Positions 599 through 5,249 of a DNA stretch of 5,487 nt are shown here, in pieces (position 1 is the first letter of the stretch; the number at the start of each line of letters is the position of its first letter). The notes beneath the pieces were generated by a model. The model had not been told where the DNA came from and ran no database searches. It saw only the letters and a program-made list of their open reading frames with translations. A program made the position numbers and the translations under genes. The stretch spans positions 1 to 5,487 of the IMG/VR virus record IMGVR_UViG_2671180921_000003. The stretch is one strand, 5' to 3'. The stretch comes from a virus. Its lineage: Duplodnaviria; Heunggongvirae; Uroviricota; Caudoviricetes.

Positions 599-1648
599 GT
601 GCGGGTATTACTTCGACCTGTTCCGGTACCGGAACTTGGGTTGGTGGTCCTTAAACCAGGCCGTGAATCCATGCAGGTATTCCATAACCCTCGAGTGCTT
701 GTGGAGCCGGAACCGAAAAGCATGCGCGGTCTGCCGTCCGGCATCGCCCCTGCCGTTCGCCAGCCGCTGGCGGAGGATAAATCATTACTGCCGTTTTTCA
801 GCAATGAGCGTGTGATTCGTGCTGCTGGCGGCGCTGGTGCACTGTCTGACTGGCTGTTGCGCCATGTTAAATCCTGCCAGTGGCCACACGGCGATTATCA
901 CCACAGTGAAACCGTCATTCACCGTTATGGCGCTGGCGCGATGGTGTTGTGCTGGCACTGCGACAACCAGTTGCGTGACCAGACCTCCGAATCACTCGGG
1001 CAACTTGCTCACCAAAATTTGTCAGCATGGATGATTGACGTCATACGCCATGCAATGAATGGCACGCAGGAGCGGGAATTATCTCTGGCTGAATTATCCT
1101 GGTGGGCGGTCTGCAATCAGGTGGCGGATGCACTCCCAGAGTCAGTATTACGTCGTTCTCTGGGGTTACGTGCGGACAAAATCCGCTCAGTGTACCGCGA
1201 AAGCGACATTGTACCGGGAGAGCAGAGCGCCACCAGCATACTGAAGCAGCGCACAAAAAATCTTGCGCCGTTGCTTCACACCCACCAGCCACAGAACCCA
1301 GCACAGGAAAAGCAGGTGGTCAGCATTGCCGTTGATCCGGAGTCTCCGGAATCTTTCATGAGGCGACCTAAACGTCGCCGTTGGGTAAATGAGAAATATA
1401 CGCGCTGGGTGAAGACACAGCCGTGTGCGTGTTGTGGTCAACCAGCCGACGATCCCCATCACCTGATTGGTCACGGTCAGGGAGGGATGGGAACAAAGGC
1501 CCACGATATTTTCACGCTACCGTTGTGCCGGGAACATCACAACGAACTTCATGCGGATCCGCTGGCGTTCGAAGAAAAGCATGGTTCTCAGGTTGATTTA
1601 ATTTTTCGTTTTCTTGATCACGCCTTTGCAACCGGCGTGCTTGGGTAA
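599..1648 (+). CDS. DUF968 family prophage protein (YdfU-like) with a C-terminal HNH-like Cys/His motif
   Basis: 349-aa ORF with GTG start and GGAGG Shine-Dalgarno 4 nt upstream. The sequence closely resembles my recollection of E. coli Qin prophage YdfU (DUF968). C-terminal motif CACCG..DDPHH..C-REHH-NELH (nt ~1424-1552) and a second Cys/His cluster at nt ~875-961. Sits directly upstream of rusA, as in many lambdoid prophages. Confidence 0.85.
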   Translation: MRVLLRPVPVPELGLVVLKPGRESMQVFHNPRVLVEPEPKSMRGLPSGIAPAVRQPLAEDKSLLPFFSNERVIRAAGGAGALSDWLLRHVKSCQWPHGDYHHSETVIHRYGAGAMVLCWHCDNQLRDQTSESLGQLAHQNLSAWMIDVIRHAMNGTQERELSLAELSWWAVCNQVADALPESVLRRSLGLRADKIRSVYRESDIVPGEQSATSILKQRTKNLAPLLHTHQPQNPAQEKQVVSIAVDPESPESFMRRPKRRRWVNEKYTRWVKTQPCACCGQPADDPHHLIGHGQGGMGTKAHDIFTLPLCREHHNELHADPLAFEEKHGSQVDLIFRFLDHAFATGVLG

Positions 1649-1660
1649 AAGAGGTTACTG

Positions 1661-2020
1661 ATGCGTATAGAGTTTGTTTTGCCTTATCCGCCGACGGTGA
1701 ATACTTACTGGCGACGTCGTGGCAGCACATATTTTGTATCAAAAGTCGGTGAGTGTTATCGCCGTGATGTGGCACTAATTGTTCGCCAGCAGCGGTTGAA
1801 ATTAAACCTGTCCGGAAGGCTGGCAATAAAAATTATTGCAGAGCCACCGGATAAGCGCCGCCGCGACCTGGACAATATCCTGAAGGCACCACTGGATGCG
1901 CTGACGCATGCCGGACTTCTCATAGACGACGAGCAGTTTGATGAAATCAATATTGTGCGCGGACTGCCTGTTCCTGGTGGTCGGCTGGGGATAAAAATCA
2001 CAGAACTGGAGTGCGCATGA
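1661..2020 (+). CDS. rusA: Crossover junction endodeoxyribonuclease RusA (Holliday junction resolvase)
   Basis: 119-aa product with RusA family hallmarks (PPxxNxYxRRRG near the N-terminus, DxRRRDLDN..K..DAL..AG, DDxQ, GGRL..ITE) and the same length as E. coli RusA. AAGAGG Shine-Dalgarno 7 nt upstream of ATG 1661. Confidence 0.9.
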   Translation: MRIEFVLPYPPTVNTYWRRRGSTYFVSKVGECYRRDVALIVRQQRLKLNLSGRLAIKIIAEPPDKRRRDLDNILKAPLDALTHAGLLIDDEQFDEINIVRGLPVPGGRLGIKITELECA

Positions 2021-2706
2021 ATAACCAGTATTTACAGTTTGTGCGTGAGCAGCTCATTATCGCTACCGCTGATTTGAGTGGGGCAACAAAAGGTCAGCTT
2101 GAAGCCTGGCAGGAGAATGCCATGTTTGATACAGGGCGTTACAGGCGTAAAAAAATCCGGTACCGCGATGAAGTGACTGGAAGAATGATAACGCGGGATA
2201 GTCCACCGATACCGGGAAAACAATCACTGGCGAAAGGCTCATCAATTGCTCTGGTAAGTCAGGTTGAGTTTTCGACATCATCATGGCGACGGGCAGTTCT
2301 GTCTCTTGAAGAACTTCATAAAGCCTGGTTGTTGTGGTGTTACAGCGGGAGTATTTATTGGGAATATCAGATCGCGATAACACAGTGGGCGTGGAATGAA
2401 TTTAATGCTCAATCCGGTACCAGAAAAATTGCAGGGAAAACGCAGGAACGCCTGAAAAAATTAATCTGGCTGGCGGCGCAGGCAGTAAAAGCAGAACTTT
2501 TTGGTGGGGAAGGTTATGAATACCAGGAGCTGGCATTACTGGCGGGAGTGACAACTAAAAACTGGTCAAAAACATTTACTCGTCACTGGGTTGCAATGAA
2601 ACACATTTTTCACCGACTGGATAGTGAGGCTTTATTGTTTGTAATGAGAACACGTTCAAAACAAAAGACGGCATTTTCAAAGCAAAGTGTTGCAAAAGTA
2701 GATTGA
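2017..2706 (+). CDS. Putative late-gene antiterminator (Q-like), 229 aa
   Basis: Called mainly on synteny: immediately downstream of rusA (ATGA start/stop overlap at 2017-2020, GGAG 6 nt upstream) and immediately upstream of a promoter-terminator pair, tRNAs and the lysis genes. I do not recognise a specific Q family from the sequence. The ORF track starts at GTG 2011; ATG 2017 is preferred. Confidence 0.6.
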   Translation: MNNQYLQFVREQLIIATADLSGATKGQLEAWQENAMFDTGRYRRKKIRYRDEVTGRMITRDSPPIPGKQSLAKGSSIALVSQVEFSTSSWRRAVLSLEELHKAWLLWCYSGSIYWEYQIAITQWAWNEFNAQSGTRKIAGKTQERLKKLIWLAAQAVKAELFGGEGYEYQELALLAGVTTKNWSKTFTRHWVAMKHIFHRLDSEALLFVMRTRSKQKTAFSKQSVAKVD

Positions 2707-2718: not shown

Positions 2719-2770
2719 TCATGCAAATCTGATATTTTGCCGATTTTGTACGTGATGGCAAAAGCAAACA

Positions 2771-2796
2771 AAACCCGCCCACAAGCGGGTTTTTTG
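2771..2796 (+). terminator. Rho-independent terminator (tR'-like) about 65 nt downstream of the Q-like gene
   Basis: Stem AAACCCGC (2771-2778) / GCGGGTTT (2785-2792), 6-nt loop, T tract 2790-2795. With the upstream promoter it would give a short (~70 nt) transcript, as in lambdoid pR'-tR' units. Confidence 0.7.
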
Positions 2797-2915: not shown

Positions 2916-2991
2916 GGCCCTTTAGCTCAGTGGTGAGAGCGAGCGACTCATAATCGCCAGGTCGCTGGTTCAAATCCAGCAAGGGCCACCA
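2916..2991 (+). tRNA. ileZ: tRNA-Ile2-like (anticodon CAU; tools often label it tRNA-Met), ileZ/ileX-like, 76 nt with encoded CCA
   Basis: Full cloverleaf folded by hand: acceptor GGCCCTT/AAGGGCC, D-arm GCTC-AGTGGTGA-GAGC, anticodon loop CTCATAA (CAT at 2949-2951), T-arm GCTGG-TTCAAAT-CCAGC, discriminator A, CCA. Very similar to my recollection of E. coli ileX, and in the Q-downstream position where lambdoid and Stx phages carry ileZ. Confidence 0.85.
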
Positions 2992-2992
2992 A

Positions 2993-3068
2993 CCGCCACT
3001 AGCCATCAGGAAAGAGCGTCAACCCTTTAAGTTGAGTGTGCGAGGTTCGAGTCCCCGGTGGTGGTCCA
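2993..3068 (+). tRNA. Atypical tRNA-like gene (76 nt, CCA encoded); best fold gives anticodon UUU with C33; possibly degenerate
   Basis: Acceptor stem CCGCCAC/GTGGTGG (one G-U), anticodon stem TCAAC/GTTGA with loop CCTTTAA (3024-3030), T-arm CGAGG-TTCGAGT-CCCCG with one A-C mismatch, D-stem only 2 clean pairs, discriminator U. It occupies the middle slot of the ileZ-argN-argO trio known from lambdoid phages but does not fold as a standard tRNA-Arg. Confidence 0.45.
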
Positions 3069-3081
3069 TTATCAGTATTCT

Positions 3082-3158
3082 GCGTTGTTAGCTCAGCAGG
3101 ACAGAGCAATTGCCTTCTAAGCAATCGGTCACTGGTTCGACTCCAGTACAACGCGCCA
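3082..3158 (+). tRNA. tRNA-Arg (anticodon UCU, reads AGA), 77 nt with encoded CCA
   Basis: Acceptor GCGTTGT/ACAACGC, D-arm GCTC..GAGC, anticodon stem ATTGC/GCAAT with loop CTTCTAA (TCT at 3116-3118), T-arm ACTGG-TTCGACT-CCAGT, discriminator G, CCA. Corresponds to the argN/argO-type rare-codon tRNA of lambdoid phages; which of the two names applies is not resolved. Confidence 0.85.
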
Positions 3159-3328: not shown

Positions 3329-3760
3329 ATGTTTGGAATCTTCAAAAAGAAAACCCGCAGAGCGGCAGCGGAAATTAAAAAGTTTGAGAAACGCGATCTG
3401 GCACAGGCGGTGATTAACGCTGCATACCTGGTGGCCTATGCAGATGGTGAATGCGAGGCATCTGAGAAAGCGAAGATCGAACAGGTCTTACGTAATCAGC
3501 CTGCGTTGTCTGCGTTTACCTCGGAAATTAATGCGATTAGCGCAACTATTATCGGTCAGCTGGATACCAATTTTAAAATTGGTCGTCGTGCCGCGTTACG
3601 CGAGATTGAGGATGTGAAACACGATGCGCGTGAAGCGGAAGATGTGCTGGATGTGGCGGTGGCCATTGCGGAGGCAGACGGCGAAATTGAGCCGGAAGAG
3701 CGCAAGGTGCTGGAAGAGATTGCCGGTGTTCTGGGTCTTCGTCTGGAGAATCACCTGTGA
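3329..3760 (+). CDS. TerB-like (tellurite-resistance TerB family) protein, 143 aa
   Basis: ATG 3329 with AAAGGA Shine-Dalgarno 8 nt upstream. Acidic helical protein with two repeated Y/A-x-ADGE..E-x-E-K..L modules (AYADGECEASEKAKIEQVL and AIAEADGEIEPEERKVLEEIA), which I associate with the TerB fold. Family call is from memory, not a search. Confidence 0.7.
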   Translation: MFGIFKKKTRRAAAEIKKFEKRDLAQAVINAAYLVAYADGECEASEKAKIEQVLRNQPALSAFTSEINAISATIIGQLDTNFKIGRRAALREIEDVKHDAREAEDVLDVAVAIAEADGEIEPEERKVLEEIAGVLGLRLENHL

Positions 3761-3924: not shown

Positions 3925-4139
3925 TTTTTTTGTTTGCTGTTTATTAAAAACACTTCTGCATGGTGAATCCCCCTGTGCGGAGGGGCGACTGGTGTAGGTA
4001 GCATTTATTATGTTGTAGGCAAGCCGACGCGGGTTCAGTGACACCGGCTGAATTCACCGGGAGGCACCCGGCACCATGCTTTGCCACAAAAGTGTTATTT
4101 CTGTTTTTCTCAAACTATCATCGTTATTCCTTTATTTCC

Positions 4140-4166
4140 GGCTGCGCATGGCGCGGCCTTTTTTTT
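4140..4166 (+). terminator. Strong rho-independent terminator (8-bp GC stem plus 8 T)
   Basis: Stem GGCTGCGC (4140-4147) / GCGCGGCC (4151-4158) with one G-U pair, followed by TTTTTTTT 4159-4166. The T tract follows the hairpin on the + strand only. Confidence 0.75.
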
Positions 4167-4252
4167 ACGACCAGCCACTGGCAGATGGTCATCCTGTGAT
4201 TTGATTCCGGTTCCGGCTTTTTAACTCTGTTCCTGTACACGGGAGAAATTCG

Positions 4253-4423
4253 ATGTCGATTAAACATTACGATGTTGTCAGGGCGGCGTCGCCGTCAGAC
4301 CTTGCGGAAAAGCTGACACACAAACTGAAAGAGGCCTGGCAGCCGTTTGGTAGTCCGGTGGACATAACTCCTTATACCCTGATGCAGGCGATTGCAGCAG
4401 AAGGTGATGTGGTGGTCAAGTAA
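4253..4423 (+). CDS. Small conserved prophage protein, 56 aa (tentatively DUF1737-like)
   Basis: ATG 4253 with GGGAGA Shine-Dalgarno 6 nt upstream, stop TAA 4421-4423. Product MSIKHYDVVRAASPSDLAEKLTHKLKEAWQPFGSPVDITPYTLMQAIAAEGDVVVK. The DUF assignment is a tentative recollection. Confidence 0.55.
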   Translation: MSIKHYDVVRAASPSDLAEKLTHKLKEAWQPFGSPVDITPYTLMQAIAAEGDVVVK

Positions 4424-4599
4424 TACTGGCCACAGTTACCCAGAAACTGAATGGAGTTGCAGGTTCGGCACTCCAGGTCATAAAAGACAGTCTGACACTG
4501 AGCCTGAATGCGCTGACGCTGACGGATGTTACAAAAAGTGCAGCGTATGGCGTTGAGATAGAAAGTCTGGTGCTGGAGATGAATGCACCGGCAGCATAA
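4408..4599 (+). CDS. 63-codon open frame with protein-like composition but no ATG/GTG/TTG start (possible pseudogene, non-canonical start, or recoding); product tentatively resembles small DUF826-type prophage proteins
   Basis: This frame is open from just after TGA 4405-4407 to TAA 4597-4599 and translates to ..GQVILATVTQKLNGVAGSALQVIKDSLTLSLNALTLTDVTKSAAYGVEIESLVLEMNAPAA. It overlaps the 3' end of the upstream gene by 16 nt. A strong Shine-Dalgarno-like AAGGTGAT sits at 4401-4408, but the only in-frame candidate starts are ATA 4423 or CTG 4426. Confidence 0.3.
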   Translation, partial: CGGQVILATVTQKLNGVAGSALQVIKDSLTLSLNALTLTDVTKSAAYGVEIESLVLEMNAPAA

Positions 4600-4607
4600 T
4601 AAAAAAG

Positions 4608-4637
4608 AGCCAGCGCCCACTCTGAAGGACGCTGGCT
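4608..4637. other. Stem-loop AGCCAGCG / CGCTGGCT (8-bp stem, 14-nt loop) flanked by A tracts
   Basis: Seen directly. AAAAAAG lies upstream and AAAAGG downstream, so a U tract would follow the hairpin only on the minus-strand transcript; possible minus-strand terminator or recombination scar. Confidence 0.4.
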
Positions 4638-4752
4638 AAAAGGCCTTATATGTTTGTAGAGACTTATTTTTCACAGACAGCAATGATGTCTGTCAATATA
4701 TTATCAATATGCGGATTGTTTCAGTTACAGATGCTTTATTAAAGAAAAAAAC

Positions 4753-4787
4753 AGCCAGCACTGACTTTCGGTGGAGAGGTGCTGGCT
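4753..4787. other. Stem-loop AGCCAGCAC / GTGCTGGCT (9-bp stem, 17-nt loop) flanked by A tracts; paralog of the 4608-4637 hairpin
   Basis: Seen directly. Same AGCCAGC core and same A-tract context (AAAGAAAAAAAC upstream, CAAAAGG downstream) as the hairpin at 4608-4637. Confidence 0.4.
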
Positions 4788-4961
4788 CAAAAGGATAGAT
4801 GGACTTCACATGTTGCTTCTATATGGCGGTACATTTTCTGACAGACAGTGACGGATGTTGTCAAGATATTGTGTCATTTATAACCTGAATCAGGGGAGGC
4901 CGGAATGTTATCTGGCATTTTTAGCAGAGCCTGAATGCCATAATCACGGCTCCCGGAGTTG

Positions 4962-4992
4962 GCCGTCAGTGGGTGACACTGGCGGCTTTTTT
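4962..4992 (+). terminator. Rho-independent terminator about 50 nt upstream of the holin start
   Basis: 10-bp stem GCCGTCAGTG (4962-4971) / CACTGGCGGC (4977-4986) with one G-U pair, 5-nt loop, then TTTTTT 4987-4992 followed by further T-rich sequence. Confidence 0.75.
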
Positions 4993-5042
4993 GTTTTTCT
5001 TTACTTTCATTTTCTGTCGGCGGTGACGGAGACATACATCAG

Positions 5043-5249
5043 ATGGAAAAAATCACAACAGGTGTGTCATACACCACGTCAGCGGTGGGGACGGGATACT
5101 GGTTACTGCAGCTGCTGGACAAAGTCTCTCCATCCCAGTGGGTGGCAATAGGTGTATTGGGTAGCCTGCTGTTTGGCCTGCTGACGTATCTGACAAACCT
5201 TTATTTCAAGATTAAAGAAGATAAGCGTAAGGCTGCACGGGGAGAGTAA
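5043..5249 (+). CDS. S: Class II holin, phage 21 S (S21) family pinholin-like lysis protein, 68 aa
   Basis: Product [68 protein letters not shown] is near-collinear with my recollection of S21 / DLP12 EssD (..[45 protein letters not shown]). GGAG 11 nt upstream. Confidence 0.9.

Follow-up and report, generated by a model that had tools for sequence, protein, structure and literature searches.

The first 5,487 nucleotides of the virus record IMGVR_UViG_2671180921_000003 (Caudoviricetes), the whole stretch that was analysed and is called the window here, are the late-regulatory/lysis boundary of a lambdoid prophage. Between the 3′ remnant of a sialate O-acetylesterase gene (nanS-p) and a pinholin gene lie two similar units, modules 1 and 2, which are read on the minus strand and each comprise a promoter-like block (P1, P2), a short RNA body and a hairpin terminator (T1, T2). 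A plus-strand terminator (T3) and a third, partial copy of the promoter-like block precede the holin start (Table 1). The esterase-holin interval very probably carries two tandem paralogous genes for Hfq-dependent small RNAs (sRNAs), antisense to the late operon.

When the minus strands of module 1 (4598-4715) and module 2 (4741-4878) were aligned, the colinear alignment scored 66 against 20.7 ± 4.0 for shuffled sequences (z = 11.4). Each of the two shared blocks, promoter-like and terminator, was also significant on its own (0 of 2000 shuffles); local alignment of the second shared block, 4667-4705 versus 4832-4870, gave a score of 32, which none of 500 shuffles reached (mean 15.9). Between the two blocks the RNA bodies of the modules showed no significant similarity to each other (447 of 2000 shuffles). 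The repeat of modules 1 and 2 is confirmed as real: the elements described in an earlier note on this DNA were all found in place, and the self-similarity that it had proposed is not due to chance.

PasA is an Hfq-dependent, Northern-verified sRNA of enteropathogenic Escherichia coli (EPEC) E2348/69, transcribed from the strand opposite to the neighbouring esterase and holin genes (a '> < >' context) and found as a major form of 85 nt and a minor form of 236 nt, with Hfq-dependent stability (Pearl Mizrahi et al. 2021, PMC8550237, Table S6). The 85-nt RNA is identical to window positions 4827-4745 (minus strand) at 82 of 83 positions (E = 6e-39), the window carrying a single substitution in the RNA body and two more at the 5′ end; the 236-nt form is colinear with 4827-4598 at 93% identity, and the published Northern probe matches exactly at 4754-4778. 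The published 3′ ends map to ~4745 for the major and ~4598 for the minor form. EcOnc51, an Hfq-bound sRNA candidate found by crosslinking and immunoprecipitation (CLIP) in prophage Sp12 of strain Sakai (Tree et al. 2014, PMC4104026), aligns to 4801-4725 with 96% identity. The setting agrees as well: the PasA/PasC locus has been described between a sialate esterase and a holin with RusA and TerB nearby, and the window has the esterase remnant (+), the RNA on the minus strand, the holin (+), RusA and TerB. By its sequence, module 2 is PasA/EcOnc51, sharing strand, position, terminator and seed (GCCAGCACCU) with the known locus; the difference is that the esterase of the window is only a 3′ stump fused behind the DUF1737 gene. 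Published experiments on near-identical sequences established that PasA exists, its strand, its sizes and its dependence on Hfq, as well as the Hfq binding of EcOnc51 and EcOnc52; our analysis adds that the elements of the window are these RNAs, that the two genes are tandem paralogues and that the stems covary.

The terminator T2 has a loop of 17 nt, longer than the limit of the terminator scan; it nonetheless folds, and it coincides with the published PasA 3′ end. The terminator stems carry compensatory changes in three pairs. The PasA seed (4786-4777) lies within the 5′ arm of its own terminator, and its 8-nt complement GGTGCTGG (4569-4576) is kept in the esterase stump, CCAGCACC being exactly complementary to GGTGCTGG. 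A target motif of PasA, CUGNUGCUGG, was found in the esterase 3′ end by ligating and sequencing interacting RNAs (RIL-seq) (PMC8550237), and the site in the stump is the counterpart of this motif. Exact complementarity was used here; RNAduplex predictions that paired PasA or module 1 with the esterase stump and with the holin leader were discarded for their implausibly long interior loops.

EcOnc52 is an Hfq-CLIP sRNA candidate of prophage Sp4 of Sakai O157, and with ~1.0 million Hfq-CLIP reads it is among the abundant clusters (Tree et al. 2014, PMC4104026). It (Sakai Sp4 1181998-1182075) aligns over 78 of 78 nt to window positions 4662-4589 with 87% identity, all differences falling in the hairpin loop. 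The 5′ body and the promoter region are identical, and both RNAs lie directly after the esterase stop codon, whereas the upper stem and loop of the EcOnc52 terminator are replaced in the window by the PasC allele (39 of 40 positions identical to the PasC terminator); EcOnc52 itself has been characterised by CLIP only. T1 folds with -23.2 kcal/mol (z = -4.0), and its homologue is annotated as a minus-strand terminator in phage 434, whose curated record has two terminators on the minus strand and one on the plus strand of the corresponding intergenic stretch. By its sequence, module 1 is EcOnc52.

Since both modules are minus-strand sRNA genes, the block common to copies 1 and 2 would be a promoter, and the 'A-tract plus hairpin' that precedes each copy would be a terminator seen from the non-transcribed strand. 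The suspicion that the hairpins terminate minus-strand transcripts, and hence hint at antisense RNA, was well founded: EcOnc52 ends at hairpin 1, and the minus-strand 3′ ends predicted in the note (4601-4608 and 4744-4752) agree with those mapped for PasA. Its description of the repeat as a leader module of the holin has to be given up, in that what copies 1 and 2 have in common is where the sRNA genes have their promoters, and only a partial third copy stands in the holin leader. Its statement that no coding feature explains the repeat is right for proteins, as none of the open reading frames (ORFs) in the interval, including those at 4650-4742 and 4855-5151, matched Pfam; RNA genes with experimental descriptions do explain it. 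A protein-coding explanation was rejected on the same grounds, the ORF at 4855-5151 also overlapping the holin out of frame, and a plus-strand attenuator reading of hairpins 1 and 2 was rejected as well, A or G rather than T following them on the plus strand and T3 being the sole plus-strand terminator.

Table 1. Coordinates of features in the window (minus-strand elements are given in the direction of reading where sub-elements are listed).
Feature	Position	Strand	Remarks
DUF968/NinG-like gene	599-1648		
RusA gene	1661-2020		
Antiterminator Q gene	2011-2706		
tRNA genes (three)	2916-3158		
TerB-family moron	3329-3760		
DUF1737 gene	4253-4423		
nanS-p/SASA sialate O-acetylesterase, 3′ remnant	4430-4599	+	last ~56 codons; stop TAA 4597-4599
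Module 1 RNA (EcOnc52-type sRNA)	4601-4662	-	~60 nt, 5′ end approximate; alignment to Sakai EcOnc52
Terminator T1	stem 4637-4627 / 4618-4608, U-tract 4607-4601	-	3′ terminus shared by EcOnc52 and the 236-nt PasA form; terminator scan
Hairpin 1	arms 4608-4618 / 4627-4637		plus-strand view; A-run 4601-4607 before
P1 (module 1), promoter-like	4667-4696	-	-35 TTGACA 4696-4691, TG 4675-4674, -10 GAAAAA 4672-4667
Module 2 RNA (PasA sRNA, EcOnc51 homologue)	4745-4829	-	85 nt; E2348/69 PasA identity, probe match
Terminator T2 (PasA)	stem 4787-4779 / 4761-4753, seven-U tract 4751-4745	-	
Hairpin 2	arms 4753-4761 / 4779-4787		plus-strand view; A-run 4745-4751 before
P2 (PasA), promoter-like	4835-4864	-	-35 TTGACA 4864-4859, TG 4843-4842, -10 CAGAAA 4840-4835
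Structured spacer X	4873-4955	+	always linked to T3 and leader in related loci
Intrinsic terminator T3	4961-4998	+	11-bp stem and T-run; terminator scan, annotated in phage 434
Third, partial copy CATTTTCTGTCGGCGGTGACGGA	5008-5030	+	
Holin leader hairpin UUUCUGUCG/UGACGGAGA	5011-5032	+	9-bp stem; 3′ arm holds Shine-Dalgarno GGAG 5028-5031
Class II (phage 21 type) pinholin gene	5043-5249	+	68 codons; Pfam PF04971, E = 1.2e-32
DUF1327 gene	3′ of holin		

On the minus strand both modules read TTGACA, N15, TGT and (C/G)A(G/A)AAA, and the RNA 5′ end follows the -10 element by 5-6 nt (4829 for PasA, where it is mapped, and ~4662 for EcOnc52, where it is approximate), so that the distance from the -35 element to the 5′ end is the same in both. 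Judged by sigma-70 criteria, the -35 hexamer is perfect, the spacing is 18 and a TG stands at -15/-14; the -10 hexamer matches at only 3 of 6 positions and a consensus scan made no call. We infer that P1 and P2 are extended -10 promoters of sigma-70 type with a perfect -35 and a weak -10 element, the block CATTTTCTG..GTGACGGATGTTGTCAA being the predicted core promoter. Across 10 distinct alleles of PasA/PasC type, variation affects 3 of 49 positions upstream of the 5′ end as against 13 of the first 25 RNA positions, as expected if a conserved promoter leads into an RNA whose 5′ region diversifies. The PasA 5′ end has been thought to arise by cleavage of a longer transcript (Zhu et al., 2026 preprint); the invariant upstream region beside the variable 5′ part runs against this processing statement without excluding it. 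The promoter of module 1 is overlaid by a near-palindrome of 13+1+13 nt (TTCACAGACAGCA / TGATGTCTGTCAA, 4670-4696, centre 4683) with mirror-image -35-like hexamers on both strands, and may be an operator or an overlapping divergent promoter pair.

Aligned with 4832-4855, the third copy agrees in 20 of 24 positions, one gap being needed (score 26). When 4825-4875 was searched against the whole window on both strands, it was the best match after module 1, and its score lies above the 99th percentile (24) of the window-wide maxima of 100 shuffles. The copy is real but short and modestly above chance, without TTGACA, TG or a terminator partner (hairpin/A-tract), and it coincides with the hairpin that sequesters the Shine-Dalgarno sequence in the holin leader. 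We hold it quite plausible, at a little under an even chance, that its likeness to P2 is coincidental and that the locus shows a duplication only. The match covers just 24 nt, 1 of 500 shuffles reached its score in local Smith-Waterman alignment against 150-nt segments, an equally good 11-mer (TGACGGATGTT, 4519-4529) occurs within the esterase remnant, and the partners expected of a module are missing, whereas the window-wide percentile, the shared orientation and the distance of less than 180 nt speak for relatedness.

Whatever its origin, the third copy appears to belong to the holin expression cassette; common ancestry, a junction left by recombination or chance may account for its likeness to P2. 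A hairpin that covers the Shine-Dalgarno sequence is also formed by four further classes of leader, unrelated in sequence, among the S21-type holins (five classes in total), although the energies of these hairpins are individually no better than those of shuffles. T3 lies ~45 nt upstream of the holin start, and inspection by eye showed a terminator-like stem with a T-run in this position in most of the upstream regions collected for E. coli-type S21 holins. The stretch 4885-4996, spanning most of spacer X and T3, folds with -44.7 kcal/mol (z = -3.6). Within X, the segment 4890-4934 holds a nine-codon mini-ORF, MLSGIFSRA (4905-4934, plus strand), 7 nt after a GGGGAGG tract, and this purine tract varies by indels among relatives. 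X-T3 was also considered as an inverted PasA paralogue and rejected, the gappy alignment (38 versus 20.3 ± 3.9; 2 of 1000 shuffles) being carried mostly by terminator and palindrome and unconvincing.

The holin gene reads ATA CAT CAG ATG at 5034-5045, where most relatives have ATG TAC CAG ATG or ATG AAA TCC ATG; as the upstream start of the dual-start motif is missing, only the 68-residue holin can be made. In lambda S (sdi) and phage 21 S, a hairpin containing the Shine-Dalgarno sequence reportedly lies just upstream of the holin start, with a terminator before it. The window differs from both in having ATA for ATG at the upstream start (5034-5036), so that an sdi-regulated dual start is apparently absent.

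From these elements we infer not only the exact promoters but also an independent transcription of module 1 and roles for T3 and the leader hairpin. Each gene would run from a sigma-70-type promoter through a short RNA with a fast-evolving 5′ part to a Rho-independent terminator built on a conserved AGCCAGC/GCUGGCU stem, and read-through of the PasA terminator would yield the 236-nt minor form ending at the terminator of module 1. On the other strand, T3 would stop transcription that is not antiterminated before the lysis genes, and the leader hairpin would then occlude the Shine-Dalgarno sequence of the holin.

Module 1 could instead be only a 3′ extension of PasA produced by terminator read-through, P1 being the decayed relic of a duplicated promoter. 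The module 1 region has indeed been described as part of a minor 236-nt PasA form (Pearl Mizrahi et al., PMC8550237), the -10 of P1 is weak, a promoter scan made no call for P1 with this geometry, and the module 1 body shows no significant similarity to the PasA body. We nevertheless consider this unlikely. In Sakai Sp4, IS629 is inserted ~20 nt beyond the TTGACA of module 1 and has removed the PasA module yet left P1 intact, and EcOnc52 is found there as a separate Hfq-bound RNA; P1 retains a perfect TTGACA and P2-like spacing, and in a plasmid copy of 88% identity (L149) it is better conserved than the RNA body. In RIL-seq data the region homologous to T1 (743267-743294) is RNA2 in all its chimeras. 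The abundance of EcOnc52 in Sp4, where the PasA module is lacking, and the consistent behaviour of the T1 region as RNA2 argue that module 1 is a gene in its own right, probably with a promoter of its own, and not merely the tail of read-through PasA.

Several points weigh against the reading of the interval as two sRNA genes. If the PasA 5′ end arose by cleavage, the true promoter would lie further upstream and P2 would be something else; the -10 hexamers, CAGAAA and GAAAAA, are poor and were passed over by the consensus scanner. The similarity of the third copy is short, and its relation to P2 could be descent or chance. The CLIP reads map to both Sp4 and Sp12 (the 'x' flag), which leaves Sp4-specific expression of EcOnc52 unproven, and the boundaries of EcOnc52 are CLIP-cluster limits rather than mapped ends. 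PasA has been published as an expressed, Hfq-bound RNA of ~85 nt for E2348/69 (Northern, RIL-seq) and Sakai (CLIP) only, and the RNA evidence stems from these strains. A literature search for more on EcOnc51 and EcOnc52 returned only unrelated 'pAsa/PASAT' papers.

Alternatively, CATTTTCTG..GTGACGGA in its three copies might be a functional element acting on the plus strand or in the DNA, such as a reiterated regulator site or an RNA motif of the late transcript, which would couple the activity of the sRNA promoters to holin expression. The copies share one orientation, the third is above window-wide chance and overlaps the holin Shine-Dalgarno sequence, and P1 lies inside the 13+1+13 near-palindrome, an arrangement typical of operators. 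The palindrome is strong in P1 only, however, and its TGTCAA half is missing from the third copy; the fold of the plus-strand P2 RNA is unlike that of the leader hairpin; a related locus with a mosaic breakpoint inside the third-copy motif (L096) keeps the core of the holin leader and not the 5′ half of the motif; and no candidate regulator is known. We regard this explanation as improbable. As much of a long shot is the idea that PasA and EcOnc52 arose by an old tandem duplication and share a promoter/operator block with the third partial copy in the holin hairpin, the whole acting through a precursor brake or a common regulator. If it were true, a minus-strand precursor from upstream of P2, such as the reported cleavage of a longer transcript calls for, would carry a leader, UCCGUCACUGUCUGUCAGAAAAUG, that is near-complementary to the hairpin over the holin Shine-Dalgarno sequence, and the sRNA locus would be a direct trans-acting brake on holin translation and hence on lysis timing; alternatively, one regulator would bind all three copies and co-ordinate sRNA output with lysis.

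Related loci were collected via the holin and labelled with L-numbers. The tandem architecture (T1, body 1/P1, spacer, T2, body 2, P2, X, T3, leader) occurred in 13 loci and a single-module architecture of PasC type, with T1 joined directly to a PasA-like body, in 10, and several unrelated fillings occupied the same slot in others. PasC, from prophage PP5 of E2348/69, shares a terminator with the window (its counterpart of T1), has a body 81% identical to PasA and a promoter region identical to P2; it differs in being a single module, a PasA-like body followed by the T1 hairpin, whereas the window has two modules and no body of PasC type. L076 combines the PasA body with the PasC terminator, and nearly all of the difference between the window and its closest E. 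coli relative lies in the T1 loop. The PasC chimera, L076 and the T1-loop patch point to exchange at the level of the hairpin; such alleles imply that recombination within the shared AGCCAGC/GCTGGCT(A/C)AAA shuffles bodies and terminators, and PasC-type alleles look like hairpin-level recombinants of PasA and EcOnc52. The note's suggestion of recombination at this junction holds to the extent that alleles swap hairpin, body and promoter (PasC, L076, the T1 loop), and fails where it would make the units mere scars. It is very improbable that repeated illegitimate or homologous recombination where cargo and lysis cassette meet left the repeats as scars without a function, visibly mosaic as the locus is (PasC, L076, the T1 loop, the L096 break inside the third copy, the unrelated slot fillings). 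Both modules are abundant Hfq-bound RNAs, PasA being Northern-verified, the stems are kept by compensatory changes, and the promoter is near-invariant beside variable RNA 5′ parts. Moreover, of 5426 complete E. coli genomes, 671 have a match to at least 80% of the interval 4560-5060, which takes in both modules, usually in several prophages per genome; the genome search gave ~3300 places in all.

Apparent variants among these loci were set aside: L147 (H65), which seemed to offer a clean module boundary at 4912, carries an internal deletion in a decayed prophage, and the plasmid copies L149 and L150 are fragments truncated by insertion sequences and not architectures of another kind. In L077, L079 and L088, the slot is taken, ~330-230 nt upstream of the holin, by another minus-strand sRNA that matches the EcOnc32 probe (Tree et al.); its promoter, TTGACA-N16-TATAGA, is canonical, and its terminator begins with the same AAAAAAGAGCCAGCGC as T1, which suggests, from the sequences compared, a wider superfamily sharing a terminator base. 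Contigs with this enterobacterial prophage holin were also found in metagenome-assembled genomes labelled Nanosynbacter, Bacillota, Veillonella, Segatella and Geobacteraceae (L008, L012/L014, L019, L039, L043), assignments that are almost certainly binning contamination.

Other sRNA systems resemble the pair in part. OmrA/OmrB of E. coli and PrrF1/PrrF2 of Pseudomonas are comparable in that paralogous sRNA genes stand next to each other in one orientation, every gene having a promoter and a terminator to itself. In PrrF1-PrrF2, transcription past the first terminator gives a longer composite RNA, PrrH. Unlike in those pairs, the RNA bodies in the window have diverged beyond recognition and only the promoter and terminator blocks are alike. 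AsxR and AgvB are likewise short Hfq-binding sRNAs, which lambdoid prophages encode in their moron region, downstream of pR′, on the strand opposite to the late transcript. They have a conserved 3′ and a variable 5′ part, but they are sited after stx or moron genes and not directly before the holin. Their covariance models (RF02703 and RF02702, respectively) gave no match in the window at E ≤ 1 or in 4540-5060 at E ≤ 10, and at these thresholds Rfam as a whole returned nothing credible in the interval.

The flanks of the interval are those of related prophages. The segment 4429-5250 is colinear with the esterase 3′ end and holin of Stx1 phages, H-19B and phage 434 (megablast, 93-96%), and 4430-4599 is therefore the stump of the esterase. 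This gene, ~1.85 kb in relatives, is cut to ~56 codons and joined directly behind the DUF1737 ORF (4423-4430), with the PasA-complementary site kept. Further upstream, between the TerB moron and the DUF1737 gene, a sRNA of STnc100 type gives a strong Rfam match (3929-4115, plus strand, 116 bits, E = 8e-26), followed by a hairpin and T-run at 4139-4170; the STnc100 family has been related to PasD (Zhu, Shabalina & Storz, 2026 preprint). With the two minus-strand genes, this match brings the prophage sRNA genes in the window to at least three. Directly 3′ of Q, a sub-threshold similarity to the Hfq-binding RNAs isrK/isrJ (2722-2795, plus strand) ends in a strong terminator; by analogy with lambda 6S RNA and StxS, this RNA is probably the short pR′-tR′ transcript. 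Between two tRNAs found by Rfam, ARAGORN called a third (2993-3068, plus strand, anticodon ttt) on which the Rfam tRNA model was silent, and this middle tRNA may be degenerate.

The feature itself is essentially already known, module 2 as PasA/EcOnc51 and module 1 as EcOnc52. What is new is modest: the tandem paralogy of PasA and EcOnc52, their shared promoter geometry and the chimerism at the level of the hairpin seen in PasC. The 2026 survey (Zhu, Shabalina & Storz, preprint) missed the tandem paralogy and the composite make-up of PasC, the diverged paralogue 150 bp downstream having escaped its criterion. PasA and EcOnc52 are unannotated in Rfam and in GenBank/RefSeq, and scans of raw sequence will therefore go on turning them up as repeats without an explanation.

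Of the Hfq ligands that prophages encode in EPEC and enterohaemorrhagic E. coli, these sRNAs rank with the most abundant, and they interact with mRNAs of virulence genes. Two paralogous genes in tandem, and not a single gene with a long minor form, would make up their locus, and the variation that starts abruptly at the RNA 5′ end, beside an invariant promoter, is reminiscent of the anti-sRNA class. The pair stands back-to-back with a cassette of terminator and hairpin that would guard holin expression, and the single-start holin behind it raises the question of how lysis timing is set. The locus thus offers a map for studying how prophage sRNAs and lysis control coexist at the boundary between cargo and lysis genes.

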